Shown one piece after another: positions 9,466 through 25,636 of a DNA stretch of 64,000 bases. Position numbers and translations under genes: made by a program. The notes beneath the pieces were generated by a model, which was not told where the DNA came from, searched no databases, and worked only from the letters and a program-made list of their open reading frames with translations. How positions within the stretch are numbered: the first letter of the stretch is position 1; every line of letters begins with the position of its first letter. The stretch spans positions 62,973 through 126,972 of the forward strand of contig SVPY01000002.1 of the NCBI GenBank assembly GCA_015065615.1. The letters run 5' to 3'. Origin of the DNA: Oscillospiraceae bacterium. GTDB lineage: Bacteria; Bacillota; Clostridia; Oscillospirales; Acutalibacteraceae.

Positions 9466-10767
9466 TTATTCTTCGTCCTCGGGTAAAATTACCGAAAGAA
9501 CTGCTTTATCTTCCTGCATAATCTCTCTTAAACGTCTGTTTACGTCCTCAAGAGTTATTTCTGCCAATGAATCAATGTATTTATATAACTCGCGTCCGTT
9601 AAACTTCATGCTGATAAGAGCGTTTGCAATTGCGGAGCTTGAGTTAAGACCTGCTATATTGGAGCCGTAAATGGAGCGTTTGGAAATTTCAAACGCCTCT
9701 TTATCGATACCCGTTTCTTTAAGCTTTTTAATTTCCTTAATAATTTCTTCGCTTACTCTCTTCGGGTCCTTGGATTCACCGCCGAACATAACAGCTGCGT
9801 GACCTTCGCCTTCGAAGAAATCGTAACTGAAGGAGCTTTCGTTAATAAGCTGCATATCGTAAAGGCGCTTGAAAAGAGGTGAAGCGTCGCTTGCCATGGT
9901 ATCAAGGATAATTTCCGTTTCCGCTATGGTTTTTTCATCAATATGCTGACCTCTCACCTTTTCTTTAAAACCGAGCTGGAATAAGGGAAGCGCAACACTC
10001 ATTTTCTGCTCGATGTAATTCTCGCATACCGTTTCGGGCTCTTCCTCAAAAATCCTCTCCACTTTAAAGGGCTCGCTTTTCTTTAAAAGCTTATCGCATA
10101 TTTTAATAACCTTGTCGCACTCTGCGTTACCTGCCACAACCAAAGCCATATTGGAGAGATTGTAGAAAGTATGGTAACAGCGGTACAGGTATTCGGGGGT
10201 TATCTGAGCGATGCTTTCAACCGTACCTGCAATATCAAGCTTGATGGGGTGATTGCGATACATAGCCTTAAGCATATTGAACATTGAGCACCATGATGGG
10301 TCGTCGTCATACATTTTTATTTCCTGACCTATAATTCCCTGCTCTTTTTTGACCGTTTCCTCTGTAAAGTAAGGAGACTGCACGAAATCCAGAAGAATTT
10401 CCAAGGATTCATATATATTCTGTGTTGCGGAGAAAAGGTAGCAGGTGTGCTCAAAGCCCGTGAAAGCATTGGCTGAAGCGCCTGTCTGAGCGAATCTTTC
10501 AAAGGTATCGCCGCCGTCTTCACTTTCAAAAAGCTTATGCTCTAAAAAGTGGGCAATTCCTTCGGGTACTTTTTGGGCGGTTTCTTCGTCGCTTCTTTTA
10601 AAGCAGTTATCTATCGAGCCGTATTTCGTTCCGAATATTGCATAAGTGGTGGAAAAATTTTTCTTGGGATACACGAAAATATCAAGCCCTGTAGGATGAG
10701 TAACTTTATAATAGCAGTCACCTGTACGGGCACTCTCTATTTTTTCCCGGATATATTCATTCTGCAT
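9466..10767 (-). CDS. M16-family zinc peptidase (catalytic subunit type)
   Basis: 433 aa. Inverted zincin motif HxxEH present (HFLEH), followed by EHKLFE. Confidence 0.8.
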   Translation of the reverse strand: MQNEYIREKIESARTGDCYYKVTHPTGLDIFVYPKKNFSTTYAIFGTKYGSIDNCFKRSDEETAQKVPEGIAHFLEHKLFESEDGGDTFERFAQTGASANAFTGFEHTCYLFSATQNIYESLEILLDFVQSPYFTEETVKKEQGIIGQEIKMYDDDPSWCSMFNMLKAMYRNHPIKLDIAGTVESIAQITPEYLYRCYHTFYNLSNMALVVAGNAECDKVIKICDKLLKKSEPFKVERIFEEEPETVCENYIEQKMSVALPLFQLGFKEKVRGQHIDEKTIAETEIILDTMASDASPLFKRLYDMQLINESSFSYDFFEGEGHAAVMFGGESKDPKRVSEEIIKEIKKLKETGIDKEAFEISKRSIYGSNIAGLNSSSAIANALISMKFNGRELYKYIDSLAEITLEDVNRRLREIMQEDKAVLSVILPEDEE

Positions 10768-10783
10768 TTATTTTTCTCCTTTC

Positions 10784-12037
10784 TTATTTTATTACACCTT
10801 TTAATTCATAAACCGTATCGAGTTTAGTAAGCTTTGCAGCTTCTATAACTTCATCCAGAGTTACCTTTTCAAATGCTTCGTACTGCTCTTTCGGAGTTAT
10901 AACGTTTTCTTCAAATATCTGATTCTGGTAGAATATCTCCAGCGAATAGAGCGAATCCTCAATGCCGTTTAAGCTGTTATATAAAGCAAGCTTTGCAGTG
11001 AAAAATTCTTCTTCTGTTATATTTCCTTTTCTTATTTCCTCAAGCTCGTTTAAAATAGCTTCTTTGGCGGCAGGAAGCTTTTCGGTTTCAACACCGCTTT
11101 CCACAAAGAGAGCCTTTTTAAGAAGCAAGGGACGGCAGCTGCAATAATAGCAAAGGCTCATTTTCTCTCGCACGTTCATAAAAAGCTTGGAAATTGCGGA
11201 GCCGCCGTAAATAACGGACATAAGCTTAAGGGCGTTATTATTTTTACACTCCGTTTTGAAGCCTACTACGAGCTTCGACTGTGAAAGTTTCATTTCGTCG
11301 CATACTTCGTGAAGAGTCTCACCTGCGGGTAATGTTTCATTTGTAAGATTATACGGTTCTCTTTCAAAACGGAATTGACTTTTCATAGTGTTTTCCACGT
11401 ATTTGAAATCGCAGTCACCTGAAACGAATATGAAAAATTTTGCTTTTTTAAGCGCTTCGTCCCAGAGAGCGGGCAAAGTATTTTCATCCGTATTTTTAAC
11501 ACTCTGACTTGTACCGTACTTACTGATGCCTGATTTTTCGTTTCTGAAAAGTTCTTTCATGGCTCTGTCCAGAGCAAATATACGCTTATCGTTAAAATCG
11601 GCGTCAATGGCTTCAAGAAGCTGACGTTTCTCCTGAATGAAGCTTTCTTTCGGGAATAAACCTCTCTCATCCTTTAAGGGGCTGAACACGGCGCTTATTA
11701 AAATCGCGAGCAATTCCTGCTCCATTTTCTCACCGCCGAAAGCGTATCTGCCTGAAATACCGCCTAAAGCAACGCTTAAAATCTGATTGTCGCCCATTTT
11801 TGCAACGTCGGCATAAATACTTGCGCCGTAAAGTGAAGCAAGCTTTCGGCTGAATGCCGTGTATTCGGGATACTCCTTTATTACGCGACTTACTATGGAG
11901 GTGAGCATCGCATACTCTGAAGCCGTTTTGGGATTTAATGGTAAAACCATTTTTACGGCAACTCTGAAGGTTTTGAATTTACTGTCTGTAAGATCTATAA
12001 TTTTTACGGAATCTGCTATATCGTAAAAGTTCGGCAT
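10784..12037 (-). CDS. M16-family peptidase-like protein lacking the HxxEH motif (probable non-catalytic partner)
   Basis: 417 aa. Same size class and operon as the HxxEH-bearing neighbour, with no HxxEH seen. The paired arrangement resembles YmfF/YmfH-type pairs. Confidence 0.65.
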   Translation of the reverse strand: MPNFYDIADSVKIIDLTDSKFKTFRVAVKMVLPLNPKTASEYAMLTSIVSRVIKEYPEYTAFSRKLASLYGASIYADVAKMGDNQILSVALGGISGRYAFGGEKMEQELLAILISAVFSPLKDERGLFPKESFIQEKRQLLEAIDADFNDKRIFALDRAMKELFRNEKSGISKYGTSQSVKNTDENTLPALWDEALKKAKFFIFVSGDCDFKYVENTMKSQFRFEREPYNLTNETLPAGETLHEVCDEMKLSQSKLVVGFKTECKNNNALKLMSVIYGGSAISKLFMNVREKMSLCYYCSCRPLLLKKALFVESGVETEKLPAAKEAILNELEEIRKGNITEEEFFTAKLALYNSLNGIEDSLYSLEIFYQNQIFEENVITPKEQYEAFEKVTLDEVIEAAKLTKLDTVYELKGVIK

Positions 12038-12157
12038 AAACTTGACCTTTCATTTAGTGAATAAATATTCTTCAAATCAGTATATCACATAAAAAAGAAA
12101 ATTTAAAGTCTTTCAGTAAAATAAAATGAATATATACATAATTTTTGTATATTTTTA

Positions 12158-12191
12158 AATAAAAATTCCGCACACCCGAAGGCATGCGGAA
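12158..12191 (-). terminator. Intrinsic terminator closing the 12.2-22.5 kb operon
   Basis: Minus strand reads UUCCGCAUGCCuucgGGUGUGCGGAA followed by UUUUU, starting 14 nt after the stop at 12205. Confidence 0.75.
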
Positions 12192-12204: not shown

Positions 12205-12876
12205 TTATCTTGCTGCTTTAAGCTGGATGTTTCTCTCTTTTGTATTCTTTACGATTTCATTGCAAAGTGCAAGAGCGTTATCCTTAGCATCAACGGAATC
12301 GTAAAGCTTATTTGTAAGGTCGTAGATCTGAATTTCAATATTTCTTACAGCTTCGCTTGTTTTTACGGGGCTGTTGTAAACTTCATCGTATGCTTTTTCA
12401 ATAGCTTTTTTAACTTCCTTATCCTTTGCAAGCTCCAAAGCAGACTGTAATTTAGCACTGCAGGTCTTAACGAAAAGAATTTCTTTCTGGCGTTTTTCTT
12501 CTTTTTCTGCCGTAACTTCGTTAGCGATAAGGTTGATAAGAAGAACTATACCGTAAGCTGCTGCAAGAAGAATCTGAATAATAAGGCAAGCTTTGAAATC
12601 TTCGGGGCGAGCAAGAATAAAGATAATGCCTACTATAAATACAATGAAGAAGTAAACTGCACTTACAGAAGCTAATGCTAAACCGAAAACAGAGCTGCTT
12701 TTGCCTTTTCTTGTAAGTATGGGTGTTGCAACTACCATAATGTAAGCAAGGTGGATAAATGCGTAGGAGATCCAAACGGATGCAGGGTTCTCCTCAGGCT
12801 TGAGAAGGAAGAAAATAACATTAAAAACTATAAGAAAAATAAGGTCTAATGCTATATAAAGAATTGACTTTTTCAT
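12205..12876 (-). CDS. Hypothetical membrane protein: 4 predicted TM helices plus a C-terminal coiled-coil/helical domain
   Basis: 223 aa. Four hydrophobic ~20-aa segments by eye, then a charged helical ~95-aa tail. 32 nt downstream of the SPFH gene. Confidence 0.6.
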   Translation of the reverse strand: MKKSILYIALDLIFLIVFNVIFFLLKPEENPASVWISYAFIHLAYIMVVATPILTRKGKSSSVFGLALASVSAVYFFIVFIVGIIFILARPEDFKACLIIQILLAAAYGIVLLINLIANEVTAEKEEKRQKEILFVKTCSAKLQSALELAKDKEVKKAIEKAYDEVYNSPVKTSEAVRNIEIQIYDLTNKLYDSVDAKDNALALCNEIVKNTKERNIQLKAAR

Positions 12877-12908
12877 TTTAAAATCCCTTTCTTTTACGTT
12901 CCGTTAAA

Positions 12909-14111
12909 TCAGAAATTACTTAAAATTTCAATTTTCTTTGCGTTGTATTCCTGCTCTGTAATAAGACCCATATCGAAGAACTGCTTTAATTTCTGAAGCT
13001 TTGCCATAGGATCGTCTGCATTAGCAGCAGCGGGAGCAGGTGCGGGAGCTGCAGGAGCCTGAGTTTCAGCGGGTGCCTGCTGATTGAAACGGCCTGAAGG
13101 AGCAGCCTGCTGAGGCATAACCTGATTCTGCTGAGGCTGGTTATTTAAGGGAGTAAACATATTCTGTGCCATTGTACCGAATACGTTACCTGCTGCGAAG
13201 CCCATACCGAGACCTGCGCCTGCGGAAGCAACACCGCCTGCACCGGGATTTTCGGCAACCTTTGAAAGAATCTCGGCGGATTTCTGACGGGCCCAATCTT
13301 CACCGAGTACGTCGAAGGCGGCTTTCTGCATCTGAATTTCAGTGCCCATTTCCATCTTCTTCTGGTATGCGCTCATACCTATTTCATCATACTTCTTTCT
13401 CAGTTCACTGTCATCGATATCGAGAGCGGAAATGATAAACTGCTCGCAATTGAGACCGTATTCGCTTACTATTTCCTGCATTCTGGGCTGAAGCTCTGCG
13501 GAGAATTCATCGATTCTTGCTTCAATACCTAAAATTTCCGTATCAAGTTCATTTAAGTGCTTTGCAAGAGCTGATCTTATTTTGCTCTGGAACTGCTCGC
13601 CGAAATAGAGCTTTAAAGAATCCTGAGTAATACCTGCTACGTTGGAGCCAACGAGCTTACTGAGGAAAATGGAAGGATTGGCAATAGAGATCTTATATGC
13701 GCCGCGTGCGCGTAAATCTGTCTTTATGCCGAGCATCTTATCTCTTACGGCAATGGGGGAAGTTGTACCCCACTTAAGCTCCATAGAGTGAGACTGCTTA
13801 ACGAAATAGACAACGCAGTTAAAGGTACTGATACCGCCTGAGAATGCGTTTCTGAGTCTGCTGATAAAGGGATAGTTCTCTGTGGAGAGCTTGTATGTAC
13901 CCTTATCGAAGGTACCCTCGATATTACCGCCCTTTATAAACAGAGCCTGCTCGCCGGGCATAACTATAAGTGTGGAATTTGTGTTGAAGTCCTCCTCGGG
14001 CTGACGCCAGATAAGAAGATCGGGTGAGCCTGTATTTTTGATGACATCGGTCCAGTGCTTTTTACCGCCCTGGTAATTTACTTCATTGGGATTTTTGCCA
14101 AAGAGTGCCAT
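12909..14111 (-). CDS. SPFH/Band-7-like protein of the YdjI ('virion core protein-like') type with a P/Q/A linker and a C-terminal SHOCT domain
   Basis: 400 aa. The N-terminal pattern LIVMPGEQALFIKGG...VVYFV...KWGT matches the YdjI-type SPFH family as I recall it. The PAAPAPAPAA linker is followed by a C-terminal stretch (KLKQFFDMGLITEQEYNAKKIEIL) typical of SHOCT. Confidence 0.7.
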   Translation of the reverse strand: MALFGKNPNEVNYQGGKKHWTDVIKNTGSPDLLIWRQPEEDFNTNSTLIVMPGEQALFIKGGNIEGTFDKGTYKLSTENYPFISRLRNAFSGGISTFNCVVYFVKQSHSMELKWGTTSPIAVRDKMLGIKTDLRARGAYKISIANPSIFLSKLVGSNVAGITQDSLKLYFGEQFQSKIRSALAKHLNELDTEILGIEARIDEFSAELQPRMQEIVSEYGLNCEQFIISALDIDDSELRKKYDEIGMSAYQKKMEMGTEIQMQKAAFDVLGEDWARQKSAEILSKVAENPGAGGVASAGAGLGMGFAAGNVFGTMAQNMFTPLNNQPQQNQVMPQQAAPSGRFNQQAPAETQAPAAPAPAPAAANADDPMAKLQKLKQFFDMGLITEQEYNAKKIEILSNF

Positions 14112-14172
14112 AATATTTTTCCGCCTTTCAATATATTTAATTTATCTTTAATTTTTCACAAAAATAACAGCC

Positions 14173-14469
14173 TTATTTTCTGGGGAAGCCCTTTTTAATT
14201 GTATCAAGAGCTTTTTCTTTATCGTCACGGAGTGTGACCATAAAAGCATATACGCCTGCTGCATCCAAAGGTGAGATCTCGCTTAATTTTTTAGCCGTGT
14301 AGCCTTCAATAACCAAAGCGTTTTCACAATCGAAGCTTCTTGTATCAAGATACACGGAAAACTCTTTTGCAATATCCTCATATTTTAAAATCTTTTTCAT
14401 AAGGACATTAGCAACAACAGGTGTAACTTTCTTTTCCTCTATATAATATTTTAAAATTTTATCTTTCAT
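14173..14469 (-). CDS. Hypothetical 98-aa protein, tightly linked to the acidic zincin gene
   Basis: Starts 3 nt after the stop of the upstream gene. No signal peptide or TM segment. No motif recognised. Confidence 0.55.
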   Translation of the reverse strand: MKDKILKYYIEEKKVTPVVANVLMKKILKYEDIAKEFSVYLDTRSFDCENALVIEGYTAKKLSEISPLDAAGVYAFMVTLRDDKEKALDTIKKGFPRK

Positions 14470-14472
14470 ATA

Positions 14473-16047
14473 TTATCTGCCTTTCAAAGCCTGTAATCTA
14501 TCCTTGAACTGATTTGCAAAAGCTCTTGCCTCTGCCTCAACAAGCTGGTCTTCATAAGCCTGCTGGTCCAAATCGGGGCTGATGTAGTTATCGAAGTTGT
14601 GCTGATACTGGTAATCAAGAGCCGACTGAGGATTCATAGCTCTCTCATGCTGATGGCAATGCCATAACTCGTGAGCAATGGTATCGGCAGCCTCGTCGGA
14701 ATTATAAAGCATATATTCATTGACCATAAGGGTGTTGCTTTCGGGGTCATAGCCTCCGTAGTCGCCCTCTGTTTCATTATTATAATACTCTATTTTCGGA
14801 GGATTTTCAATACCCGATATTTCAGAAACATAATCTGCAAGACCCTGCATTGATTCTTTTTGTTCATCGAGACTTAAATTTTCCCAGTTGGATGCTTCGA
14901 AATTGGAAAGGGAAGAATTAAGACGTTCACTGTCGGTATCAAGGTTAACGTCCTTGAAGCCTTCGGCTAAAGCATCCGCCTCAATACCTTCGTAAATGGA
15001 ATCGTAATCGATGTCACTTATATCAACGGGCTCGTTGGTTTCAGACTGGCTGTAAGTGGAATCGTTAAGCTCAGTAACGCCATCGCGCTCCATATCCGTA
15101 TCGATTGAACCGTCGTCGTGAACTTCACCCATAGGCATACCCTCTGAAACTTCAGGCTCTTCGGCGGGAACTTCTTCCTCAAATGGGATTTCATCCTCTT
15201 CAAATGCATCTTCTTCAAAGGTTTCCTCTTCAAAGTCCTCTTCATTTTCGAAGGTACTGTCAAGCATTTCTTCGGAGGAATCGGAATCTTCCACGTCTTC
15301 TTCAAAATCTAAAGTTTCAAAGTCACCGTCAACACTCTCTTCGTAAGAATCCTCGTAGCTTTCGGTAACGTCCTCTTCGAAATCGTCAAATTCACCTGAA
15401 CCGACGGAGCTCTCTGTGCCGGGAGCTAAAATTTCTCTTACGCCCTCGTAATTTTCAATATCGTTCATCATTTCCCTTGCGCCGCCCTGACGGAAGCCGT
15501 TGAACACGTGGGGAGTAACCTGCTGACCGGGAAAAGCGTCGTTTAAAAATTCCTGCTGAAGGCGGTAACGGTCGGAAGCCAGCATACTTTCAATTTCACT
15601 TTCGGAATAACCTTTATCGCGGTAATCATCTGCAAGCACGTCCAGCTGCTGTTCCACGTTATTGTAGCCTGTTTCAAGAAGCTCTCGCTCATCACGAACT
15701 AAGGTTTTGGGAGCATCCTCTTCAAAATCGGTATAATTTTCACTATAATCATCAGTATTATAGTCGCTTGAGTTATAGTCAGTTTCGTTGTAATCCATAC
15801 TCATATCGTTTTCACTATCCTCATTAAAATCACCGGCATCAAAGGAAGAATCCGATGAAGTTTCCACATTATACTCAGATCCTGTATCTTCGCTAAATTC
15901 ATAGCCGCTATCCTGAGAGTAGTCGGTATCACTTCCCGTATCAGCAGAATAATCGGAAGTATCTGTATCAGAATAATCCGATGAGCTATCTGATGAATAA
16001 CTTAAATCAGAATCATTTGTTTCATAAGAGCTGAAATCTTCTTCCAT
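14473..16047 (-). CDS. Extremely acidic 524-aa protein with a C-terminal HExxH zincin-like module
   Basis: The N-terminal and central parts are D/E/S/Y-rich low complexity. The C-terminal ~130 aa contain AHELWHCHQHE (plus 14644-14676) and a downstream EAEARAF helix. No signal peptide or TM segment. Confidence 0.7.
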   Translation of the reverse strand: MEEDFSSYETNDSDLSYSSDSSSDYSDTDTSDYSADTGSDTDYSQDSGYEFSEDTGSEYNVETSSDSSFDAGDFNEDSENDMSMDYNETDYNSSDYNTDDYSENYTDFEEDAPKTLVRDERELLETGYNNVEQQLDVLADDYRDKGYSESEIESMLASDRYRLQQEFLNDAFPGQQVTPHVFNGFRQGGAREMMNDIENYEGVREILAPGTESSVGSGEFDDFEEDVTESYEDSYEESVDGDFETLDFEEDVEDSDSSEEMLDSTFENEEDFEEETFEEDAFEEDEIPFEEEVPAEEPEVSEGMPMGEVHDDGSIDTDMERDGVTELNDSTYSQSETNEPVDISDIDYDSIYEGIEADALAEGFKDVNLDTDSERLNSSLSNFEASNWENLSLDEQKESMQGLADYVSEISGIENPPKIEYYNNETEGDYGGYDPESNTLMVNEYMLYNSDEAADTIAHELWHCHQHERAMNPQSALDYQYQHNFDNYISPDLDQQAYEDQLVEAEARAFANQFKDRLQALKGR

Positions 16048-16079
16048 TTTAATTCCTCCTTAATGCTTTTTAATTTTTA

Positions 16080-16721
16080 TTAATAACTTTTTGCTGTGTG
16101 AATAATTAAGAATACACTCTCTACTATAAATACAGCTGCAACAATAAGATTTAAAATTGTAGCATACTGTGAAACCGCCATCGTGCCGTAAGTATAAATG
16201 TGGCTCTGTATAATTATGAGCACAATGTTTCCCACTGTATGCCAAAGGAAGAATACTGCCGATATAATTCCGAATATGGGGTTACCGTTTTTAAAGCAAT
16301 GTACACTGAACATAACAAAATAGAAACTATACACAAGGGAAAGACCAAAGAATAAAACAAATACTAATACACCATCTAAACCAAGGTTATTAATTAAGCC
16401 CTGAGCAGAAATATCAACACCGAAAAGACCGAGGAAATTAGGAAGTGCCGCTACACCTAAAGATGCTGCAGTAATAAGTAAAACACTTTCCCTCTCCTCC
16501 ATAAACATAAAGAAGAAGCCAAGCACCGCTAAACCAAACACCAAAGTATAGCCTACACCGTTAAAAGTACCTACTATTCTTTGAATATTATTGTATTCTT
16601 CCAGAGACTTTACGCCATATGTCATAGGAAGCACTATGTTAAGACCTGTGCCTATAAAAAAAACAAGAAGCCTTCCGATAAAACCGAATACGGCAAGTTT
16701 TTTACCTGTTTCGTAATTCAT
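16080..16721 (-). CDS. Paralogous polytopic membrane protein, copy 5 of 5
   Basis: 213 aa, ~6 TM by eye. Shares family motifs with copies 1-4 (FMFMEERESVLLIT; FKNGNPIFGII). Confidence 0.65.
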   Translation of the reverse strand: MNYETGKKLAVFGFIGRLLVFFIGTGLNIVLPMTYGVKSLEEYNNIQRIVGTFNGVGYTLVFGLAVLGFFFMFMEERESVLLITAASLGVAALPNFLGLFGVDISAQGLINNLGLDGVLVFVLFFGLSLVYSFYFVMFSVHCFKNGNPIFGIISAVFFLWHTVGNIVLIIIQSHIYTYGTMAVSQYATILNLIVAAVFIVESVFLIIHTAKSY

Positions 16722-16743
16722 AAAACGTCTCCTTACTTTACTG

Positions 16744-17307
16744 TCAATCGCTGTTTACTGCTGTAACGGCTGCAAGACCTAAATTAAGAGTAATAATAAC
16801 ACCGTTAAAGATATTGATAAGGTAATTAAGAATTCCGCCTACTCCACCGCCGAAAATAATAGCTATAGCTACGGGATATAAGAAAGCGAAGTAAACAAAA
16901 ATGAGAATCATAATAATTCCGGGGGCCGATTTTCCTTTTTTCATAAAGTTTAAGCCTAAGCCCAAAAGGAACAATTCCTCTAAAACGCTGTAAATAAGTT
17001 TTCCTATTGAAAGTTGTGCCCCAAAAACTACGTAGGGGAACAAGCCTGAGGACACCACTAAGGTTATAAGAATTGTAACTGCCGTAATTAAATCGAAAAA
17101 GTCTCTTTCGCCTATAAACTTTAAAAGATATCCGATAAAAGCAATGGCAAGACCTATAAGAAAACCGTAATTAAGATAAATATAGGTATCAGCAATTACC
17201 TCGTCACCGAAAACTATTGCACCGAAATAAGTAAGAATTCTTATACCTGCAGTTAGAGCGCATATTAAAAGTCCGCCACAAGAAATTTTACTACCAACGT
17301 TTGACAT
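16744..17307 (-). CDS. Paralogous polytopic membrane protein, copy 4 of 5
   Basis: Start moved to ATG 17307 (MSNVGSKIS..., aligns with MSETGKKIN / MKNKGNKIV of the paralogs). AAGGAG RBS lies 8 nt upstream. Motifs LKFIGERDFFDLIT and MKKGKSAPGII. Confidence 0.65.
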   Translation of the reverse strand: MSNVGSKISCGGLLICALTAGIRILTYFGAIVFGDEVIADTYIYLNYGFLIGLAIAFIGYLLKFIGERDFFDLITAVTILITLVVSSGLFPYVVFGAQLSIGKLIYSVLEELFLLGLGLNFMKKGKSAPGIIMILIFVYFAFLYPVAIAIIFGGGVGGILNYLINIFNGVIITLNLGLAAVTAVNSD

Positions 17308-17324
17308 AATTAAAGCTCCTTTTA

Positions 17325-17912
17325 TCAATCACTAGAAGCTGTGAAAGTACTGAAAATTAATGTTGCAAGCATAATAACTTCGTTAAATAAATACGTAATG
17401 AAAACTTCGGTATCTGTAAGAATCTTCATAATGGTAGCGTTTGCATGACCACCGAAAAGTTCCTCCGCACATAAAGGAAAAATTATTGCAAGGTAAGCAA
17501 ATGTAAGTAAGATTATACCGCCCTGCATTGTATCGCCTTTTTTGAGTACGTTAATACCGATACCTAAAAGGAATAAATACACTAAAGCACGCTGAATAAT
17601 GTTCTCTGCCATGCTGTATACGGGAATCTGAATAAAATTGAGTGACATTACTATTGAAACACCAATAGTTGCTACTGTTATTACATCGAAAACATCCTTT
17701 TCGCCAAGGAACTTTAAAACGTATCCTGCTGCGCAAAGGAGAAGACCAACGATAAAAGCAAGATTCATATAACCTACAATATCGTTAATTGCCATAAAAG
17801 GCATTTCTAATATTCTTGCAACCCCGCACATATAGAAAACCAATCTGGCTACAATAGCTAACACAGCTAATAAAAGACCAACAAAAACAATTTTATTTCC
17901 TTTGTTTTTCAT
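17325..17912 (-). CDS. Paralogous polytopic membrane protein, copy 3 of 5
   Basis: 195 aa, ~6 TM. Motifs LKFLGEKDVFDVIT and LKKGDTMQGGII. Ends ...SSD, like copy 4 (...NSD). Confidence 0.65.
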   Translation of the reverse strand: MKNKGNKIVFVGLLLAVLAIVARLVFYMCGVARILEMPFMAINDIVGYMNLAFIVGLLLCAAGYVLKFLGEKDVFDVITVATIGVSIVMSLNFIQIPVYSMAENIIQRALVYLFLLGIGINVLKKGDTMQGGIILLTFAYLAIIFPLCAEELFGGHANATIMKILTDTEVFITYLFNEVIMLATLIFSTFTASSD

Positions 17913-17931
17913 AACAAACTCCTTAAATTAA

Positions 17932-18486
17932 TCAGCCTTCCTGATTAATTGATATAGCACTTAAGCCGTAAGAAACAAATTTCACACCTGCATTGAATAT
18001 TAAAAGAACTGTCCATAATTCATCGGGAAGATCTGCATAAAATAATGTGGGAGCAATAACTGCAAAATAAAGGAAAACCAATACTCCTGCAATACCAAAA
18101 AGATGATTACCGTTTTTAAACGCTTTTATCGCAACACCCAACATTACGCAAACTGAAAGAGCATTCATTACCATCATTGTAAAGAAATCACGGTACCAAA
18201 GGTAACCTTCTTCGTTTGCAAGAGCAAACACGTTTATAATTAAGGTAACTACTGCTGTGCCTACAACAATTAAATCTGTAAAATCTCTGTCGCTAAAAAA
18301 TCTTAAAGCTGCGCCTATGGCAGCAATAAGCATTGCTCCTGCCATAATAAGATTTCCGATATTATTTATAGCGTAAAATAAATCACCGTCAAAAAATATC
18401 ATCAAAGCAGCAAAAGCGCACGCCGCCGCACCTAAAGCCGCCGCAATGTAGCCTATCAGATTAATTTTTTTACCTGTTTCACTCAT
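17932..18486 (-). CDS. Paralogous polytopic membrane protein, copy 2 of 5
   Basis: 184 aa, 6 hydrophobic segments. Motifs LRFFSDRDFTDLIV and FKNGNHLFGIA. Confidence 0.65.
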   Translation of the reverse strand: MSETGKKINLIGYIAAALGAAACAFAALMIFFDGDLFYAINNIGNLIMAGAMLIAAIGAALRFFSDRDFTDLIVVGTAVVTLIINVFALANEEGYLWYRDFFTMMVMNALSVCVMLGVAIKAFKNGNHLFGIAGVLVFLYFAVIAPTLFYADLPDELWTVLLIFNAGVKFVSYGLSAISINQEG

Positions 18487-18575
18487 AATAACACCTCAAA
18501 CTAAATATCTCAATATAGCACTCTGCGCCTTCCCCCGTTTTACGGGAAAAGGCGTGAGTTTTTTGTAAATTTTAA

Positions 18576-19193
18576 TTATTCTTCATCTGCTGCGGTTTTT
18601 TCGCCTTCGAGCTTCTTTTTATTTGTTTCAAGTAAGCAAAGGGCGGGAGCTGCGATAGCAATCACTCTGTAAAGGTTATTAAAGCCCCAGTTAATAATAC
18701 TAAAGAAGAAGTTGTCGTCTACTTCATAAACAAGGAAAGCAGAGAACATATTAAGGCAAGGTCCGATAATAGCCATATAAGCAAGAAGACCTGCAAAGAT
18801 AATTGCAAAGTTTTTGTTATCATTCTGGAAAGCATCAAGAGCAAAAGCTGCAAGGTAAGAATAGAAAACTACGTTTAAAATAAGTGTAACTATAAAATGA
18901 GGGGAAGGAATCCATAAAAGAACGAACTGTGCTAAAAGTGTGCCGCAAAGAATGATATCGTTTATCTTTCTGCCTTCGTTATACATTAAGAAAGCGCCTG
19001 CTGCAGCAGCTACGATACCTGCAACGCTGAGCCAGAATGTGCACATTAAAACAAACTGGAAAAAGCCTAAATTCTGCCAACCGAATAAGCAGATGCCGAA
19101 TTCTGCCAAAGCGTTAAGAGCCATAGTGCCGAAACCTGCAAGTGTAAGAATTTTTCCGTTTGAGTGAGTTAAATAACTATTTTCAATAAGCAT
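18576..19193 (-). CDS. Paralogous polytopic membrane protein, copy 1 of 5 (most divergent, charged C-terminal tail)
   Basis: 205 aa. AAGGAG RBS. Motifs LMYNEGRKINDIIL and FQNDNKNFAII. Tail NKKKLEGEKTAADEE. Confidence 0.6.
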   Translation of the reverse strand: MLIENSYLTHSNGKILTLAGFGTMALNALAEFGICLFGWQNLGFFQFVLMCTFWLSVAGIVAAAAGAFLMYNEGRKINDIILCGTLLAQFVLLWIPSPHFIVTLILNVVFYSYLAAFALDAFQNDNKNFAIIFAGLLAYMAIIGPCLNMFSAFLVYEVDDNFFFSIINWGFNNLYRVIAIAAPALCLLETNKKKLEGEKTAADEE

Positions 19194-19231
19194 AATTTTT
19201 TCTCCTTAAATAATATAATTTAATTTAGATT

Positions 19232-21913
19232 TTATTTTTTTAATGAATTCTCTATCTGAGAATCGGTTAACTGAATTTTTGTGCCGTATTTTATACGTCT
19301 AAAAAGCTGAACCTTAACGCAGGATCTAAGCTCGGGGGTAAAGGGTTCGTCGTTAAGCTCGTTTTTAATAAGCATACTGATTTTTTCAAGAACCTTCTTT
19401 ACAGGCTCCGCGGTTTTATCCTCGGCTTTAAAGTTCTTTATAAAAATTCTTCGGGCAATTTCTTTTGCTAAGTTACGCCTGAAATAATCGCAGGTTTTAC
19501 TGCAGCAGGGAACCAATTCGCACTGAGGATAAGGTCTCAGTTTTTCCGCCCTGCTGTTCCAGTATTTCGAAAGGCTCTTGATGCCTTCATCGGAAAGACT
19601 GATGCTTATGTTATTTTCAAGGCGGTAATCGGGTGTAACCACTTCTTCGGGTTCCTCAAGTTTATTGAAGAACAGGAAAGCTTCACCCGGCTTTAAGCGT
19701 GAAAGCCTTTGCTTCTGATTTTCCGACATATTCGTTGAATCGGCAATAATTGTTTTATCCTGAGCTTCAACTATGCGGAAGGTCATTTTCATATCCGTTA
19801 AAGCCACTACGTCGGTAGTAACTTTTCTTGGGGACTGATCCGCAATAATTAGACCGACACCCAGAGAACGTATCTCTGCCAGCATTCTCTTTACAAGCTC
19901 CTGAGCTATGGCTGCGGGATTTGCTTCATTTTGTGAGGATGAATTTCTGTCAAGAAGCACGTGGGCTTCTTCAAGAAGAATAACGTTCTTAAGCCCTCCC
20001 TCACCTACGTAGTTGCTGTTTACGTAAGCAAGAATTGAAAGAAGGATAAGAGCAATCAAAAGCGCTTTCTGGTCGCCGTTTTCTATGGCGGCAAGCTCTA
20101 TTACCGTAGGCTTCTTTAAAATATCCTCAATGGGAATGCTGAAATAGTTATCGAAAAGATTAACCAAGCTGTTAAGTCTTACCACGCCTGCGCGGCCGAT
20201 ATTCTTTGCGTCGCCTGTATAGCCGATTTCCTCAAAGGTCTGCTGGAAGCACTTGATGAAGTCGGAAATATTAAATATCTTACCTTTATCGTCCACAGTG
20301 TAGGTATCAAGCCATCTGTGGTCGGAGTAGCAATTGTTTATGGTCTCCTCAAATATCTTATCAAGAGGAGTGCTCATGGATACGCCTGCGGCAAAAGCAG
20401 TTTTTAAAGTGGATTTGTAGGTCTCAAGCCTTACGTTCTTAGGCGGAACGAAGGGATTGAACACAAAGGGTGAGATAAAATTCTTACCCGGTGTAAATAC
20501 CTGTAGGTCGGGAATACTCTGCACCATTGCTCTGTATTCATTCTTTGCAGGCTCAATTACAAGGAAGGGGATCTTGTGGTCCTTCCAGAGTCTGTCAAGA
20601 AGACTTACCGAGAAGGTTGTTTTACCTGAGCCGGGAGTACCCACTATAAGCATATGCTTTGCAAGGTCCTTAACGGAGAAGCCTATCGTGTCCCCTTTCG
20701 AGGAGGATTTAAGCTTACCTACAGTTATATCTCCTGCATTTATCAGGTTATCGTTATATGAGCGGCTCTGCTTTGTAGCTTCGTTTACCTTAAAGCCTGC
20801 ATATACGTTACTGCTGCCTAAAGGCAGACGGAACACTTCACTTGCTTCGGCGGCGGTAATTATACGGGGTAATCTGTAAAGAGCGGCTGAAAACTGACCG
20901 CTGTACCATATATTCTGATTTCTGCCCTTATTGAGCATCAGCTCGTTTACTGCCCACGGCAGGGGGAAGAAATTAGTATTCTTATTTACCTCTGTTTTTG
21001 AAAGCGGTACCAGCTTCAGATTTGCATTCTGCCCTACGCCTGTGGCAATCTGACCGAATACCCTTGTGGATATTCCCGCCGCAGCCATATTATCACCGTA
21101 AACAAGCACGTTGTAGCTGAATAAAGGAGCGTTCTTGTTATCGGAATAATACTTATAAAGCTCTGAGTGTTTACCTGCAAGGGCAAAGCTTAAGTTGCCC
21201 ACGCTCATATCGTTAACGCCGCGGCTTAAGGTTTCAAGTACCTGTACGTTTCGGTCAATGGCTGCCATTTCCTCGCTTGTAAAGTAAGTTGGCATAAGCT
21301 GTATAGATAAAGCCGCGTTGGGGTATTCTATAAGCGCATTTATAATTTTGCTTATGTCGCTGCTTCCTACGGGGAATCTATCGAAGGAATAGCAGTAAGG
21401 CATAAGCTGATTTTCAAGATTTTCTGCCTTTTCATCTTTTATAAGAGCTCTTATATCAGCATCGTTAACAGAACTTACGGCTGCCGCTATTTCCTTATAA
21501 TCCACACTTTGGAACTCGTATTTTTCCTGCCTGAGTGTAGCTTTGCAGATATTTGCCGCCGCATTTACTAAAGCGTTGGCACTTTCTTTTGTGAAATCGA
21601 TAGCTCTTGTAATTATGTAAAGATTGATTTTTGCCTTATAAGGCTGATTTTTTACGGCTTCGGTTGCAAAAAGCAGCTCCACCGAAATATCCTTATAGGC
21701 ACTTCCGCTTAAAACTCCCGTTCGGTAAAGCTGATAAAGCTCGCCAAGCATTATGTTTATGTCGCTTTTGAAGCTTTCGAGAGTTCTTTCGGGAGTTGTA
21801 TCATCAGGATTTACTATTTTAAAATGCGGTATTGACGTAATTTTCAAAGCGGAAAGAGATACTACCTCTTTGCCTCCCGATAAATTTACGTAACTGATTT
21901 TATTTTCCTGCAT
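19232..21913 (-). CDS. HerA/FtsK-superfamily P-loop ATPase with a ~420-aa unassigned N-terminal region and a C-terminal Cys cluster
   Basis: 893 aa. Walker A KHMLIVGTPGSGKTT (plus 20615-20641). Walker B type ILLEEAHVLL (plus ~19951-19983). HerA-like RSLGVGLIIADQSPRKV. C-terminal C-x5-CC-x3-C. Confidence 0.7.
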   Translation of the reverse strand: MQENKISYVNLSGGKEVVSLSALKITSIPHFKIVNPDDTTPERTLESFKSDINIMLGELYQLYRTGVLSGSAYKDISVELLFATEAVKNQPYKAKINLYIITRAIDFTKESANALVNAAANICKATLRQEKYEFQSVDYKEIAAAVSSVNDADIRALIKDEKAENLENQLMPYCYSFDRFPVGSSDISKIINALIEYPNAALSIQLMPTYFTSEEMAAIDRNVQVLETLSRGVNDMSVGNLSFALAGKHSELYKYYSDNKNAPLFSYNVLVYGDNMAAAGISTRVFGQIATGVGQNANLKLVPLSKTEVNKNTNFFPLPWAVNELMLNKGRNQNIWYSGQFSAALYRLPRIITAAEASEVFRLPLGSSNVYAGFKVNEATKQSRSYNDNLINAGDITVGKLKSSSKGDTIGFSVKDLAKHMLIVGTPGSGKTTFSVSLLDRLWKDHKIPFLVIEPAKNEYRAMVQSIPDLQVFTPGKNFISPFVFNPFVPPKNVRLETYKSTLKTAFAAGVSMSTPLDKIFEETINNCYSDHRWLDTYTVDDKGKIFNISDFIKCFQQTFEEIGYTGDAKNIGRAGVVRLNSLVNLFDNYFSIPIEDILKKPTVIELAAIENGDQKALLIALILLSILAYVNSNYVGEGGLKNVILLEEAHVLLDRNSSSQNEANPAAIAQELVKRMLAEIRSLGVGLIIADQSPRKVTTDVVALTDMKMTFRIVEAQDKTIIADSTNMSENQKQRLSRLKPGEAFLFFNKLEEPEEVVTPDYRLENNISISLSDEGIKSLSKYWNSRAEKLRPYPQCELVPCCSKTCDYFRRNLAKEIARRIFIKNFKAEDKTAEPVKKVLEKISMLIKNELNDEPFTPELRSCVKVQLFRRIKYGTKIQLTDSQIENSLKK

Positions 21914-21965
21914 AACAAATTTTCACCTGCCTGATACTGCAAAAGCAGTAAGTTTAATAAACTTT

Positions 21966-22523
21966 TTACGGATAGTCAATTCCGCCGTTGGGTGCATGGC
22001 ACCTTATAACTCTTCTTATACCTTTAAAGGTACCTTTTAAAAAACCGTATTTATTTACGGACCTTATCATATATTCGCTGCAGCTTGGTTCAAATCGGCA
22101 CCTCAGCCTTGTATCGTCGCTGGCTTTTGACTGATACAGATGTACAAGCCATATTACGGCTTTTTTACCGATAATCAAAATATAAACGAGAGAAAAAGCT
22201 ATGCTTAAATATGCCGTATAGGGTCTTAAATATAGGTTGCTTAAAACTACAGCGGCGCTTAAACCTGCAATGAACAAAACAAGCGCCAATATAAAATTTT
22301 TGTAACTCACTTTCGGTCTTCTTAAAGGATTATAGGGCCTTACAAAGCCTGTGGAATAAACCACGGGAGCGCCCATAACCCTCACTCTGTCCGAATCGTC
22401 ATCTTTTTCTTCGCTTTTATTAAGCAGACTCTCGTCCACTTCCCAAAGCTTTTTTTCTTCTTCACTTAATTCGGAAAACTTCTTTTTAGGTTCTTCCTCA
22501 TTTATCTTTTTTTCAATTTCCAT
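21966..22523 (-). CDS. Membrane-anchored YidD-domain (membrane protein insertion efficiency factor) fusion protein
   Basis: 185 aa. E/K-rich N-terminus and two hydrophobic segments. The C-terminal ~60 aa carry the YidD/DUF37 signature CRFEPSCSEY...RCHPxxxGGxD (CRFEPSCSEYMIRSV...IRCHAPNGGIDYP). Confidence 0.7.
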   Translation of the reverse strand: MEIEKKINEEEPKKKFSELSEEEKKLWEVDESLLNKSEEKDDDSDRVRVMGAPVVYSTGFVRPYNPLRRPKVSYKNFILALVLFIAGLSAAVVLSNLYLRPYTAYLSIAFSLVYILIIGKKAVIWLVHLYQSKASDDTRLRCRFEPSCSEYMIRSVNKYGFLKGTFKGIRRVIRCHAPNGGIDYP

Positions 22524-22629: not shown

Positions 22630-23322
22630 TCAGATGGAGTACTTCTTCTCTCTGATCATTGCCTTAGCAGCCTGAATGCTTCTCTCTACGCCGCCGTTGT
22701 TTCTGAGGGAGAAGGAGTAGGAAGCACCGGGAACGATGATCTCAAGAGCGTCAACTGTGTAGTTGTTCTTTGTAGCGTCGCTGCCGAAGGGATTGCAGCC
22801 GCAGCCCTTACCGAAGTCGATCTTCTCAACGAGCTTGTGCTCTGTGCTGAAGTTTGTGATGTCTGTGTAGAAGAAATCGTTTGTCTCTTCAATAACGTCG
22901 TCACTGATCATGGAGAATGTAAGTGTGTATGTATACATCTGTGTAGCGCTGAAGAAAATCCATGTTACGCTGTAGTGTGTAGAAACTACGTCGCCGTCGT
23001 CAACCTTAACGTCAACACCTTCACCTACATACTTGAAGGAAGAGAACACGATGGGAGGGATCTCTTCGATCTGGCTCTGGTCGAGACCGATCATATCCAT
23101 AGCTCTCTGCTTGTGGTTGAAGCTGTCGCATCTTGCCTGTACCATATTGATATACTCGTCAAACTTAATGGGAGAACCCTTAATGAGACCGCAGCACTCA
23201 TCCTCTTTATAGAAGAAATCGATAATCTTCTTCTGTTCCTTGCTTTTACCCTTCTTCATAAGTGTAATAGCAGCTTTTTTAGCAGCTTTGTTCATTGCTG
23301 CACCAAATAATTCACCAGCCAT
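22630..23322 (-). CDS. Hypothetical 230-aa soluble protein with expression-type codon bias
   Basis: Strong GGAGG RBS. Codon choice is heavily skewed (AAG, ATC, TTC, GAC, ACA, AGA). Appears to have its own terminator. No motif recognised. Confidence 0.6.
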   Translation of the reverse strand: MAGELFGAAMNKAAKKAAITLMKKGKSKEQKKIIDFFYKEDECCGLIKGSPIKFDEYINMVQARCDSFNHKQRAMDMIGLDQSQIEEIPPIVFSSFKYVGEGVDVKVDDGDVVSTHYSVTWIFFSATQMYTYTLTFSMISDDVIEETNDFFYTDITNFSTEHKLVEKIDFGKGCGCNPFGSDATKNNYTVDALEIIVPGASYSFSLRNNGGVERSIQAAKAMIREKKYSI

Positions 23323-23420: not shown

Positions 23421-24011
23421 TTACAGCATAGGCTTCGGTAAACCGCAGGCTGTAAATACCATATCGATATCTATATCCGATACACCTAAAGCTTTAGCTT
23501 CAGCTAATTCCTGCTGGAAATTGGGTGTAACGTTCAAATACTTTCTTGCGAAATAATCCTGCTTAATATATGCAAGCATATAATAGTAAATACCACGAGG
23601 CTCTATCATATTTGCCGCATTGAGATTTTCCACAATTTTATTGATTGCAGGTCTTAAAAGAAGGAAGGGCTTCTTGCCGCCGAGCATTGAAATAGCCGCA
23701 TAGAAATATGCTTCGGAATTATCAAAATTATCCTCAATAGCCTTTTCAAAAGCTTTTGCAGCCTCTTCATACTTCTTTAATTTGAGGTAAACCATACCGA
23801 TGGAGAAGTTAAGTGTGGGGTCATCGGGATTTTCCCTTAAATTATTCTGATAACCTCTGGTAAGCTGCTGAAGCTTGGGACCGGGGAGATCAATAACACT
23901 GTTGAAAGTAGAGATTGCAACAGGGGAACCGCAATATTCACAAACCTTCATACCTGTTGTAACAGGAGCGTTGCAACCGGGGCAACGAATATCAATAACA
24001 TGAGCTGCCAT
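23421..24011 (-). CDS. Zinc-ribbon plus TPR-repeat protein
   Basis: 196 aa. N-terminal CPGC-x13-CEYC ribbon, then TPR-like helices (IGMVYLKLKKYEEAAKAFEKAIE). Confidence 0.6.
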   Translation of the reverse strand: MAAHVIDIRCPGCNAPVTTGMKVCEYCGSPVAISTFNSVIDLPGPKLQQLTRGYQNNLRENPDDPTLNFSIGMVYLKLKKYEEAAKAFEKAIEDNFDNSEAYFYAAISMLGGKKPFLLLRPAINKIVENLNAANMIEPRGIYYYMLAYIKQDYFARKYLNVTPNFQQELAEAKALGVSDIDIDMVFTACGLPKPML

Positions 24012-25396: not shown

Positions 25397-25551
25397 ATAC
25401 AAACTCCTTATTATATTATTAAATAAAAAAGGCAAGACCTGCGCCTCGCCCAATTTTAAGAGCATACTTTCAGAAGCGAAAACCACTCAATTTAAACTTA
25501 TTTAACTCGGTAAAATTAAAATAGCCAAGGAAAATGCCTTGCCTATTTTAA

Positions 25552-25636
25552 TGGTGCGGGTGACAGGACTTGAACCTGCACGGGGGTGCCACCAGAACCT
25601 AAATCTGGCGCGTCTGCCAATTCCGCCACACCCGCA
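25552..25636 (-). tRNA. tRNA-Leu (anticodon UAG)
   Basis: 85 nt. Acceptor stem UGCGGGU/ACCCGCA plus an encoded CCA. Leu-type D-arm GUGGCGGAAUUGGCAGACGCG. Anticodon stem-loop CCAGA-UUUAGGU-UCUGG. Long variable arm. T-arm GGUUCAAGUCC. Confidence 0.92.

Follow-up and report, generated by a model that had tools for sequence, protein, structure and literature searches.

What could a bacterium do with a set of genes that places an ATPase of the FtsK-HerA superfamily beside an extremely acidic protein and a membrane scaffold? This question is raised by a cassette on the minus strand of contig SVPY01000002.1 from an Oscillospiraceae bacterium, studied here within a stretch of 64,000 nt (the window). 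An initial annotation had described the locus as matching no known apparatus, and indeed none was found in Pfam, NCBIfam, PADLOC, PHROGs or literature searches. From sequence, genomic context and two structure predictions, on which all functional statements below are based, we tentatively favour the answer that the cassette encodes a membrane-docked pump, which would export or package polyanionic carrier proteins tipped with toxins, an answer that we would call short of probable.

A constant acidic partner of the ATPase

The 893-aa ATPase of the cassette (g02) is encoded at positions 19232–21913, on the minus strand like all cassette genes below. The regularity that we regard as central, and which was absent from the initial annotation, is its pairing with a polyacidic protein. 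The window's proteins were compared by tblastn with 79 loci encoding related ATPases, and all open reading frames (ORFs) found there were clustered. Counting a protein as acidic when D+E amount to at least 22% and exceed K+R by at least 15 points, the first gene after the ATPase encodes an acidic protein in 48 of 70 loci, and one of the next three genes does so in 58 of 70, against a background of 9 among 1161 other ORFs. The acidic proteins range in length from 60 to 1374 aa and their sequences fall into many unrelated families.

In the window this constant partner is g08 (14473–16047), a 524-aa polyacidic protein with a C-terminal HExxH zincin. Its acidity and its HExxH module had been noted before, and both are borne out. 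It contains 30% D+E and 4% K+R, with a net charge of about −135 and a pI of 4.05. The region around the HExxH motif (H459) has DUF6782 as its nearest family, with a score just below the cut-off (25.8 versus 27) and with the HExxH and a downstream Glu-rich helix present; a homologous short protein at another locus (L076) reaches 29.0 bits, above that cut-off. Comparison of the zincin domain with PDB sequences gave nothing significant.

The acidic proteins have a common N-terminal motif, approximately M-x-[DE]-[DE]-[FYM], followed by [ST]-x-D within a few residues. A strict version of it is met with in 26 of 60 acidic proteins, in 1 of 1160 background ORFs and in 4% of composition-matched shuffles; most of the remaining acidic proteins have it in a relaxed form, in which position 4–5 is taken by an aromatic residue. 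The g08 protein starts MEEDFSSYETNDSD (motif MEEDF..S..D). We also observed, in the acidic proteins of nine loci, an ~80-aa 'DDYRDKG' module, PKxLxRDE…ADDYRDKGxSExEIE…QxEFLxDAFPGQxVxPxVFNGF, which lies at residues 106–185 of g08 (15493–15732); it is assigned to no family.

Several classes can be told apart among the C-termini of the acidic proteins, and these co-vary with the small ORF that comes next, in many cases overlapping the stop codon. All 12 loci with a DUF6782-type zincin (cluster 0), a distant Thermoflexales locus among them, have a gene of one and the same family after it (12/12); for other HExxH types the partner belongs to a 66–69-aa family or has 156–200 aa, and for a papain-like class it has 132–169 aa. 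By this co-variation, the 98-aa product of g09 (14173–14469) in the window is the cognate partner of the DUF6782-type zincin. It has no match in Pfam or PDB, and its position suggests an immunity- or inhibitor-like protein. Other acidic proteins carry known toxin domains, all scoring above cut-offs: Gln_amidase (Tox-PL1, 'papain fold toxin 1') on two (E 3e-15 and 5e-12), the WHH HNH nuclease and Colicin-DNase on two (E 3.5e-13 and 2.7e-7), and Endonuclea_NS_2 (NucA-type) on one (E 4.5e-21). Tox-PL1, WHH, colicin DNase and NucA are among the domain types catalogued for delivered polymorphic toxins in the survey by Zhang et al. (2012, PMC3482391). The earlier suggestion of an effector (the acidic zincin) with a cognate partner (its 98-aa neighbour) is thus supported by the 12/12 pairing and by the toxin domains on other acidic proteins.

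Most cassettes have no zincin at all. In some loci a short zincin and its g09-type partner form a pair apart from a second acidic protein, so that the zincin may act in processing and not as a toxin. In Chloroflexi, loci whose ATPases are about 29% identical to g02 hold paralogues of a Zn-ribbon/transmembrane (TM) protein together with a small DUF6782 zincin above the Pfam threshold, in one case with a g09-like gene next to it. The pairing with an acidic protein persists even where the rest of the cassette is gone: on the Priestia megaterium plasmid pN447-3.1 (locus L080, 8743–15231), the gene after that of a 968-aa ATPase (32% identity) encodes an acidic repeat protein of 1135 aa. The latter consists of ~30-residue repeats (…TDQLTDTDTELQDDLPQA…); the locus has no SPFH module, and a 140-aa ORF lies directly upstream. 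Judged by their sequences, the acidic proteins are modular carriers, some of them purely acidic and others toxin-tipped.

The motor

That g02 is an ATPase of the HerA/FtsK type, as had been proposed, is confirmed by a DUF87/HerA match at residues 396–624 (42.2 bits, cut-off 23.2), and among 52 members of its family DUF87 was matched in 46 and HerA_C in 21. Its best solved relative by sequence is Sulfolobus HerA 4D2I (E 6e-8). The protein consists of an N-domain (residues 1 to ~390), for which comparison with PDB sequences gave nothing significant, a P-loop domain (~396–760) and a Cys-bearing C-terminal helical domain. The residues of Walker A (G425–T433) and Walker B are conserved across the family, as are E649/H651. 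The cysteines C798, C808 and C865 in the C-terminal domain (residues ~790–893, window 19232–19600) are likewise kept across the whole family, with C804 present in close relatives, and may form a metal site. In an exhaustive search of cluster representatives (clusters of 50% identity), 1541 clusters reach E ≤ 1e-30, and full-length members of ~880 aa are found down to ~28% identity.

Matches to more specific families are partial. In PADLOC, g02 partially matches mad8 (E 1.9e-17), DndH (E 3e-7) and HerA, the last over only ~100 C-terminal residues; in NCBIfam, it reaches 81.9 bits with CedD (cut-off 600), 23.3 with CedB (cut-off 700) and 33–58 with the HerA models (cut-offs 800–970). We also observed that positions 731–1104 of NF033849 (ser_rich_anae_1, a model of 1163 positions) align to ATPase residues 393–728 with E 2.4e-9, which suggests that some proteins join a serine-rich region to a related ATPase.

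The initial annotation had stated that VirB4 is lacking. By sequence this holds, as no match to the VirB4 family (CagE_TrbE_VirB) was detected in g02 or the 52 family members; by structure it does not hold as simply, since the 14 best matches of the ATPase model are all TrwK/VirB4 chains. In this AlphaFold2 (AF2) model the N-terminal ~360 residues are confidently predicted, and residues 371–774 have a pLDDT below 50, the underlying alignment being shallow (67–96% identity). The Foldseek matches to PDB have E-values of 1.5e-7 to 9.5e-5 and probabilities of at least 0.97 at a TM-score of ~0.2, and an hhalign comparison with TrwK aligned the P-loop core only (E 0.025). We thus treat g02 as a protein of VirB4-like predicted build, not as a member of VirB4. 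Altogether, the motor appears to be hexamer-class, conserved and active, and to come from a DNA-pumping family.

A cassette found across phyla

Across the 79 loci, the core set consists of a Zn-ribbon/TPR protein (ZnTPR), a protein of an unnamed family (U1), the ~890-aa HerA/DUF87 ATPase, the hyper-acidic protein, an SPFH-SHOCT protein and a 4-TM protein, in the consensus order ZnTPR – U1 – (YidD fusion) – ATPase – acidic protein – (small partner) – SPFH – 4-TM. Among 30 loci with full flanks, the SPFH gene is present in 28, the 4-TM gene in 26 and a Zn-ribbon module in 29. This module comes in three alternative forms, namely ZnTPR with U1 (14 loci), a Zn-ribbon/TPR protein with a C-terminal TM segment (f7; 11 loci) and a Bacteroidota-type Zn-ribbon protein with two C-terminal TM segments (f8; 7 loci). 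The module of the window fits the first form, with U1 apparently anchored through a fusion of YidD with two TM segments.

Relatives of the ATPase occur in at least 576 representative genomes (in a scan of one genome per species), and the ATPases of the 74 best loci are 40–83% identical to that of the window. The loci span at least nine phyla, across which ATPase identity is 44–83%, including Bacillota, Bacteroidota, Spirochaetota, Planctomycetota, Verrucomicrobiota/Kiritimatiellia, Synergistota, Fibrobacterota and Actinomycetota, and also Acholeplasmataceae. Carriers among isolates come from four phyla (Ruminococcus albus, Faecalicatena contorta and Bengtsoniella intestinalis; Paludibacter; Fretibacterium fastidiosum; Modestobacter lapidis). 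Carriers among metagenome-assembled genomes, named here by their labels as deposited, include Treponema, Planctomycetaceae, Opitutaceae, Akkermansiaceae, Kiritimatiellia, Fibrobacteria, Acholeplasmataceae and others. The gene set is thus syntenic well beyond very close relatives, in isolates of four phyla and in metagenome-assembled genomes of several more. The initial annotation had asked whether the ATPase, the acidic HExxH protein and multi-copy 6-TM genes co-occur across genera; the ATPase does co-occur with an acidic protein, but the 6-TM genes are absent from most cassettes, and so is the zincin.

The surroundings of the cassette vary. Among 133 flanking ORFs there are six tyrosine recombinases, three resolvases and four helix-turn-helix (HTH) proteins, and the rest are unrelated between loci. 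In about ten loci a tyrosine or serine recombinase gene lies directly upstream in the same orientation (among them tyrosine recombinase in L005, L024, L041, L060, L066 and L067; serine recombinase in L011 and L018). Such a recombinase could mark a small integrative element, or could act on the cassette itself, for instance in effector switching. ATPases from different phyla are 60–68% identical, which, together with the variable neighbourhoods, indicates that the cassette has been spread horizontally. In the lineage of the window itself the cassette keeps its position, M16 peptidase genes likewise lying downstream, and the upstream genes differ between close relatives; in the closest relatives (L082 and L084) the ATPase is 83–87% identical and the neighbouring M16 peptidase gene ~74%. 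In the window the M16 pair lies at 9466–12037 (minus strand), one gene encoding an active Peptidase_M16 domain and the other the inactive domain only, and it flanks the cassette in L082 and L084 as well.

Other origins were considered and rejected. For a phage origin there are just two weak partial matches in 50,697 phage records, and PHROG matches are confined to the P-loop region. The sole full-length plasmid match is the one of 32% identity on the Priestia plasmid. As to a tRNA-linked genomic island, a tRNA-Leu gene (25552–25635, minus strand) does lie upstream, but no direct repeat of the att type connects it with the far end of the cassette.

Membrane and adaptor parts

The SPFH protein (g10; 12909–14111) has 400 aa, with a Q/P/A-rich linker and a SHOCT tail, and is the core scaffold of the cassette. 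Its earlier assignment as a YdjI-type SPFH protein with SHOCT is well founded, with 122 bits for Band_7_1 (cut-off 24) and 31.1 bits for SHOCT (cut-off 27), and a hydropathy scan found no hydrophobic segment in it. The gene next to it, g11 (12205–12876), is the core partner of the SPFH gene and encodes 223 aa. A hydropathy window finds in this protein the four hydrophobic segments that had been attributed to it, followed by a charged helical C-terminal half, and it has no match in Pfam or PDB.

On the other side of the ATPase stand two adaptors. The gene for ZnTPR (23421–24011) encodes a core protein of 196 aa matching Pfam Zn_ribbon and TPR. Homologues of 38–57% identity adjoin the ATPase in 39 loci, and sometimes the gene is relocated to just 3' of the 4-TM gene. 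The U1 gene (22630–23322) encodes a core protein of 230 aa, here in a soluble, Cys-bearing variant; the family is seen in 42 loci and has no Pfam or PDB sequence match. Its AF2 model (pLDDT 85.8) consists of N-terminal helices, a β-sheet and a C-terminal helix, and was not taken as a recognisable fold, as the Foldseek matches are weak and PH-domain-like (E ≥ 0.01). Around residues 40–50 soluble U1 has a Cys-rich stretch (CCG in the window, GCGC in most) at the place where other variants have a 2-TM hairpin. Other members of the family carry this hairpin or a Zn-ribbon, and some homologues have both an N-terminal Zn-ribbon and a LiaF-like TM region. The idea that f8 is a fused U1 was dropped, since hhalign found nothing.

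A YidD domain had been recognised in g01 (21966–22523), and it is indeed present at residues 120–184 of this 185-aa protein (PF01809, 71.6 bits versus 27; TIGR00278, 64.2 versus 40). For a YidD protein g01 is atypical, with a 119-residue N-terminal extension that comprises a charged tail and two hydrophobic segments. The proposal that it serves as a dedicated insertion factor does not agree with its distribution, which is that of a lineage-specific accessory: the YidD-2TM fusion is found in 14 of 16 loci with a hairpin-less U1 and in 1 of 21 with a hairpin-bearing one (Fisher p 2.7e-7, without phylogenetic correction), and the two exceptions with a hairpin-less U1 do show tblastn matches to YidD. 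Because the fusion is present where U1 lacks its TM hairpin, it probably anchors soluble U1 in the membrane.

The five membrane proteins encoded between the ATPase and the acidic protein had been taken as paralogues, which they are: g04 (17932–18486, 184 aa), g05 (17325–17912, 195 aa) and g06 (16744–17307, 187 aa) match one another directly (E 1e-6 to 1e-23), and the six-copy arrays found in close relatives connect g03 (18576–19193, 205 aa) and g07 (16080–16721, 213 aa, the most divergent) with them (E 1e-5 to 1e-12). They had also been placed at the heart of the apparatus as a multi-paralogue membrane assembly. As a core channel we rejected them, since a profile search of 5.8 billion proteins found only 11 family members, confined to a few Oscillospirales-type loci, and most cassettes have none; they are lineage-specific accessories. 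Between close relatives, 6-TM orthologues are 44–82% identical, compared with 83–87% for the ATPase. The array has five copies in the window and six in L082 and L084, and g05 has no orthologue above 34% identity; this change in copy number and the orthologue-less g05 speak for rapid birth, death and divergence. By sequence comparison, then, the array is a fast-evolving accessory, possibly immunity-like.

The transcription unit and its surroundings

All eleven minus-strand ORFs of the operon first described are present, and its intergenic gaps (52, 38, 89, 19, 17, 22, 32, 3, 61 and 32 nt) are reproduced when the sixth gene, g06, whose ORF opens at TTG 17328, is started at ATG 17307. The unit is closed as described, by an intrinsic-terminator-like hairpin and T-run 3' of g11 (12156–12191), in which the hairpin (12191–12166) has 11 pairs, 6 of them G-C, and is the strongest terminator-like site of the region in a terminator scan.

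The description as one co-directional block stands, but the block had been drawn too small, and two upstream genes belong to the system. The gene at 22630–23322, previously called an orphan, is that of U1, and it and the ZnTPR gene upstream of it accompany the ATPase across the compared loci, for which reason we count both as members. The resulting unit of 13 genes is bracketed upstream by the best promoter-like site (24158–24130) and by a preceding strong terminator (24319–24294). The former, TTGACT-17-TATAAT, upstream of the ZnTPR gene, is a sigma-70-like consensus match only (11/12) and is, on this match, the probable start of the unit. The stem-loop between the U1 and YidD genes (22597–22562), which had been taken as the end of a preceding unit, is real (−33.1 kcal/mol, z = −4.8 against shuffles, followed by UUUUU), and is absent from the list of the terminator consensus scan. 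Since it lies within the 13-gene unit, we infer that it is internal, probably a partial terminator or attenuator.

Upstream of the cassette, after the tRNA-Leu gene, lies an ATP-grasp gene (ATPgrasp_ST; 24338–25486), and the strong terminator just mentioned follows it. Elsewhere in the window, a T-box leader (1561–1824, minus strand; 117.7 bits, gathering score 93) precedes a 408-aa ORF (267–1493), and a minus-strand run of about 20 co-directional ORFs at ~43300–63540, with a G+C of 0.29–0.37 (44–60 kb) and a strongly negative GC skew, looks like a separate large operon or island.

What the cassette may do

With the parts in hand, the reading that we tentatively favour can be spelled out. The ATPase would form a hexamer, which the SPFH/4-TM scaffold, together with the Zn-ribbon/TPR/U1 adaptors, would dock to the cytoplasmic side of the membrane; the proteins of the cassette are either cytoplasmic or have an anchor of two to four TM segments. 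The ATPase would recognise the N-terminal motif of the carriers and thread their DNA-like polyanionic chain through a pore of the type that its relatives use for DNA. Carrier and C-terminal effector would thereby leave the cytoplasm, either across the membrane or into a membrane-bounded package. In the window, the putative cargo is g08 with its acidic region and zincin, which g09 would neutralise in the producer, and the tandem 6-TM proteins would be accessory, possibly immunity-like. Toxin domains are normally fused C-terminally to exported proteins, as in VgrG, PAAR, LXG and MuF (PMC3482391), and it is because such domains normally sit on the C-termini of proteins leaving the cell that we favour export. 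In a fuller version, in which we place slightly less trust, the cassette would be a horizontally spread translocation system in gut and rumen communities, whose HerA/VirB4-like hexamer threads DNA-mimicking carriers out and which would add a new trafficking mode for polymorphic effectors.

A number of observations weigh against export. Monoderm and diderm phyla have one and the same parts list, without an outer-membrane component, which is unusual for trans-envelope secretion. The core membrane parts are 2-TM and 4-TM proteins only, with no conserved polytopic channel protein, and no family annotation of a cassette protein points to an extracytoplasmic location (no signal-peptide predictor was run). 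The VirB4 likeness comes from a model whose ATPase domain is poorly predicted, and has a TM-score of only ~0.2. Acidic proteins with neither a globular end nor a partner occur in Bacteroidota and several other lineages and, as those of many cassettes have no toxin domain, toxin delivery cannot be the whole function. The nuclease-tipped proteins of L011, L015 and L023 have no obvious small partner ORF directly downstream, and the partner proteins match none of the Pfam immunity families.

Several of these points speak instead for an intracellular conflict module, that is, an abortive-infection defence or an addiction system of mobile islands, which is the main rival but which we consider rather unlikely. 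Here a membrane-tethered ATPase would sense or engage invading DNA, its channel being filled at rest by the DNA-mimicking polyacidic protein; foreign DNA would displace or trigger the latter and release or activate its C-terminal nuclease, peptidase or zincin, so that the infected cell is killed or arrested, with g09 as antitoxin. HerA-family ATPases are components of known defence systems, and the partial PADLOC matches of g02 to mad8, HerA and DndH agree with this precedent, as do the identical parts list without an envelope-spanning component, the lack of a conserved channel and the mobility of the cassette (recombinases in about ten loci, unrelated neighbourhoods, 60–68% cross-phylum ATPase identity). 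The co-varying effector/partner pairs fit toxin-antitoxin logic equally well. Yet no partner protein matches a PADLOC model, and neither a Sir2 nor a DUF4297 nor a NurA partner was found. The flanks show no obvious excess of defence genes, the commonest being integrase, HTH and resolvase genes, then assorted housekeeping genes. The fixed position within the window's own lineage, with the ATPase at 83–87% and the M16 gene at 74% identity, is atypical of fast-turnover defence islands. WHH, colicin-DNase, NucA and Tox-PL1 C-termini on a common carrier with a common N-terminal motif are the signature of delivered polymorphic toxins (PMC3482391).

The scaffold, for its part, recalls a membrane-integrity or remodelling module like PspA-YdjGHI (SamGHI) of B. 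subtilis or HflK/C-FtsH, an explanation that we regard as improbable. It would have an SPFH microdomain, recruited by Zn-ribbon and membrane proteins, with an ATP-driven hexamer and a zincin that process membrane substrates, the polyacidic chain tethering the peptidase to the basic pore of the motor. Such a role would account for the SPFH, Zn-ribbon and zincin parts. The Band_7_1 assignment of g10 (122 bits) makes it YdjI-type, and YdjI is a cytosolic Band 7/SPFH protein brought to the membrane by YdjG (Zn-ribbon and TM) and YdjH; the cassette likewise joins Zn-ribbon/TM and SPFH proteins with a membrane protein that has a putative coiled coil. HflK/C-FtsH unites an SPFH cage, a hexameric ATPase and an HExxH in one complex, to whose parts those of the cassette would be parallel by analogy, and the deepest conserved triad is that of Zn-ribbon/TM protein, ATPase and DUF6782 zincin. 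However, the 13 cassette proteins contain no PspA-family, TPM, AAA+ or M41 domain, most cassettes have no zincin, housekeeping membrane repair leaves the nuclease and deamidase toxin domains unexplained, and the sporadic, cross-phylum, recombinase-associated distribution is unlike that of a core stress system. Finally, it is very improbable that the cassette derives, as a remnant or an offshoot, from a DNA transfer system of the conjugative/type IV-like or Ced-like kind, in which case the VirB4-like ATPase would still move DNA and the acidic proteins would be co-transferred DNA mimics of the anti-restriction type. The TrwK/VirB4 chains at the top of the Foldseek matches, the partial NCBIfam matches to CedD (81.9 bits) and CedB (23.3 bits), the 2-TM protein encoded just upstream of the ATPase in a VirB3-like position and the recombinases adjoining some loci are in its favour. 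But no relaxase, coupling protein, VirB6, VirB8 or pilin was found among the window proteins, and no CagE_TrbE_VirB there or in the 52 ATPases; CedD stays far under its cut-off of 600, and the cassette is too small (8–13 kb) and not on conjugative plasmids, its one full-length match being on the mobilizable Priestia plasmid.

If export holds, the cassette would be a new route of protein secretion or packaging common to Firmicutes, Bacteroidota, spirochaetes, Planctomycetes, Verrucomicrobia, Synergistetes and actinobacteria, with carriers in gut, rumen and termite communities. A polyanionic, DNA-like polypeptide would serve as the handle for a DNA-pump-type motor, and with it would come a class of interbacterial effectors left uncounted by current profilers of toxins and secretion systems. 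If defence holds, it would be a new membrane-associated HerA system under DNA-mimic control. Either way, function hypotheses are obtained for six uninformatively annotated families, namely the ATPase N-domain family (1541 clusters), U1, the 4-TM partner, g09, DUF6782 and the acidic carriers, as well as a concrete role for a Band_7_1 SPFH protein, and a cassette of 12 kb makes these questions testable.

Comparison with known systems

In our searches of the literature, no paper connected a DUF87/HerA ATPase with SPFH, or described the acidic carriers, DUF6782 or Band_7_1/PF13421 in such a cassette, and searches combining polymorphic toxins with HerA or VirB4 likewise gave no account of it. As a known defence system it was rejected, PADLOC giving partial matches for the ATPase and none for its partners among the ten proteins scanned. 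With the HerA systems (HerA-NurA, Sir2-HerA, DUF4297-HerA, MADS with mad8, DndH) it has in common the HerA-class P-loop domain (DUF87, HerA_C). It differs from them in the N-terminal ~390 residues of g02, which are unrelated by sequence, and in its partners, an acidic protein and an SPFH module; in line with the initial annotation, which had noted no nuclease or Sir2 partner, no NurA, Sir2, DUF4297, Mad or Dnd partners were found by PADLOC in these ten proteins.

Among secretion systems, the T7SSb (a type VII secretion system) with its LXG substrates is similar in having an ATPase of the FtsK-HerA superfamily with small membrane proteins, and substrates with a common N-terminal region, swappable toxin C-termini and a cognate small gene. 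Its hallmarks are nonetheless missing, as had been noted: Pfam and NCBIfam detect no WXG100, EssA/EssB/EsaA or EccB-E in the 13 cassette proteins. Moreover, g02 has one P-loop domain and no TM segment or FHA domain, compared with two or three FtsK/SpoIIIE domains in EssC/EccC, and its FtsK_SpoIIIE score (21.1 bits, cut-off 24) covers residues 406–461 only. The N-terminal region in the cassette is a polyacidic disordered chain and that of LXG a helical domain, and no LXG was found. The cassette also has SPFH and Zn-ribbon/TPR parts and occurs in diderm phyla.

With VirB4 (TrwK) and the Ced proteins, g02 shares a length of ~800–900 aa and a large N-terminal domain followed by a C-terminal P-loop domain. 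The 2-TM gene upstream resembles VirB3 beside VirB4 in the annotated R388 locus. At the level of sequence, however, there is no VirB4 family match, and CedD and CedB remain far below cut-off; the equivalog cut-offs that would assign g02 to the Ced import system are not reached. The statement that genes of type IV secretion and conjugation are lacking is upheld, since VirB3, VirB6, VirB8, VirB9, VirB10, VirD4, relaxase and pilin were not detected by Pfam or NCBIfam in the cassette proteins.

The membrane systems are alike in parts. PspA-YdjGHI, going by its descriptions, has a cytosolic Band 7 SPFH gene with Zn-ribbon/TM and membrane/coiled-coil genes, much as the cassette appears to, but the cassette has no PspA or TPM domain and adds the ATPase and the acidic effectors. 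HflK/C-FtsH is similar in combining, at the membrane, an SPFH assembly with a hexameric ATPase and an HExxH zincin; the motor of the cassette is, however, not AAA+, its zincin is not M41 and is optional, its SPFH protein has no TM segment, and there is no homology beyond the SPFH domain.

Lastly, polymorphic toxin systems, as treated in the part of the survey by Zhang et al. drawn on here (PMC3482391), have a conserved N-terminal part, the same known toxin C-termini and co-varying downstream genes. The partner genes of the cassette differ in matching no catalogued immunity family, many of its carriers are toxin-free, and a polyacidic N-terminal part with an ATPase/SPFH apparatus is not among the trafficking modes in that part of the survey. 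Altogether, the logic of polymorphic toxins is known; the apparatus and the polyacidic handle are, to judge from these comparisons, new.

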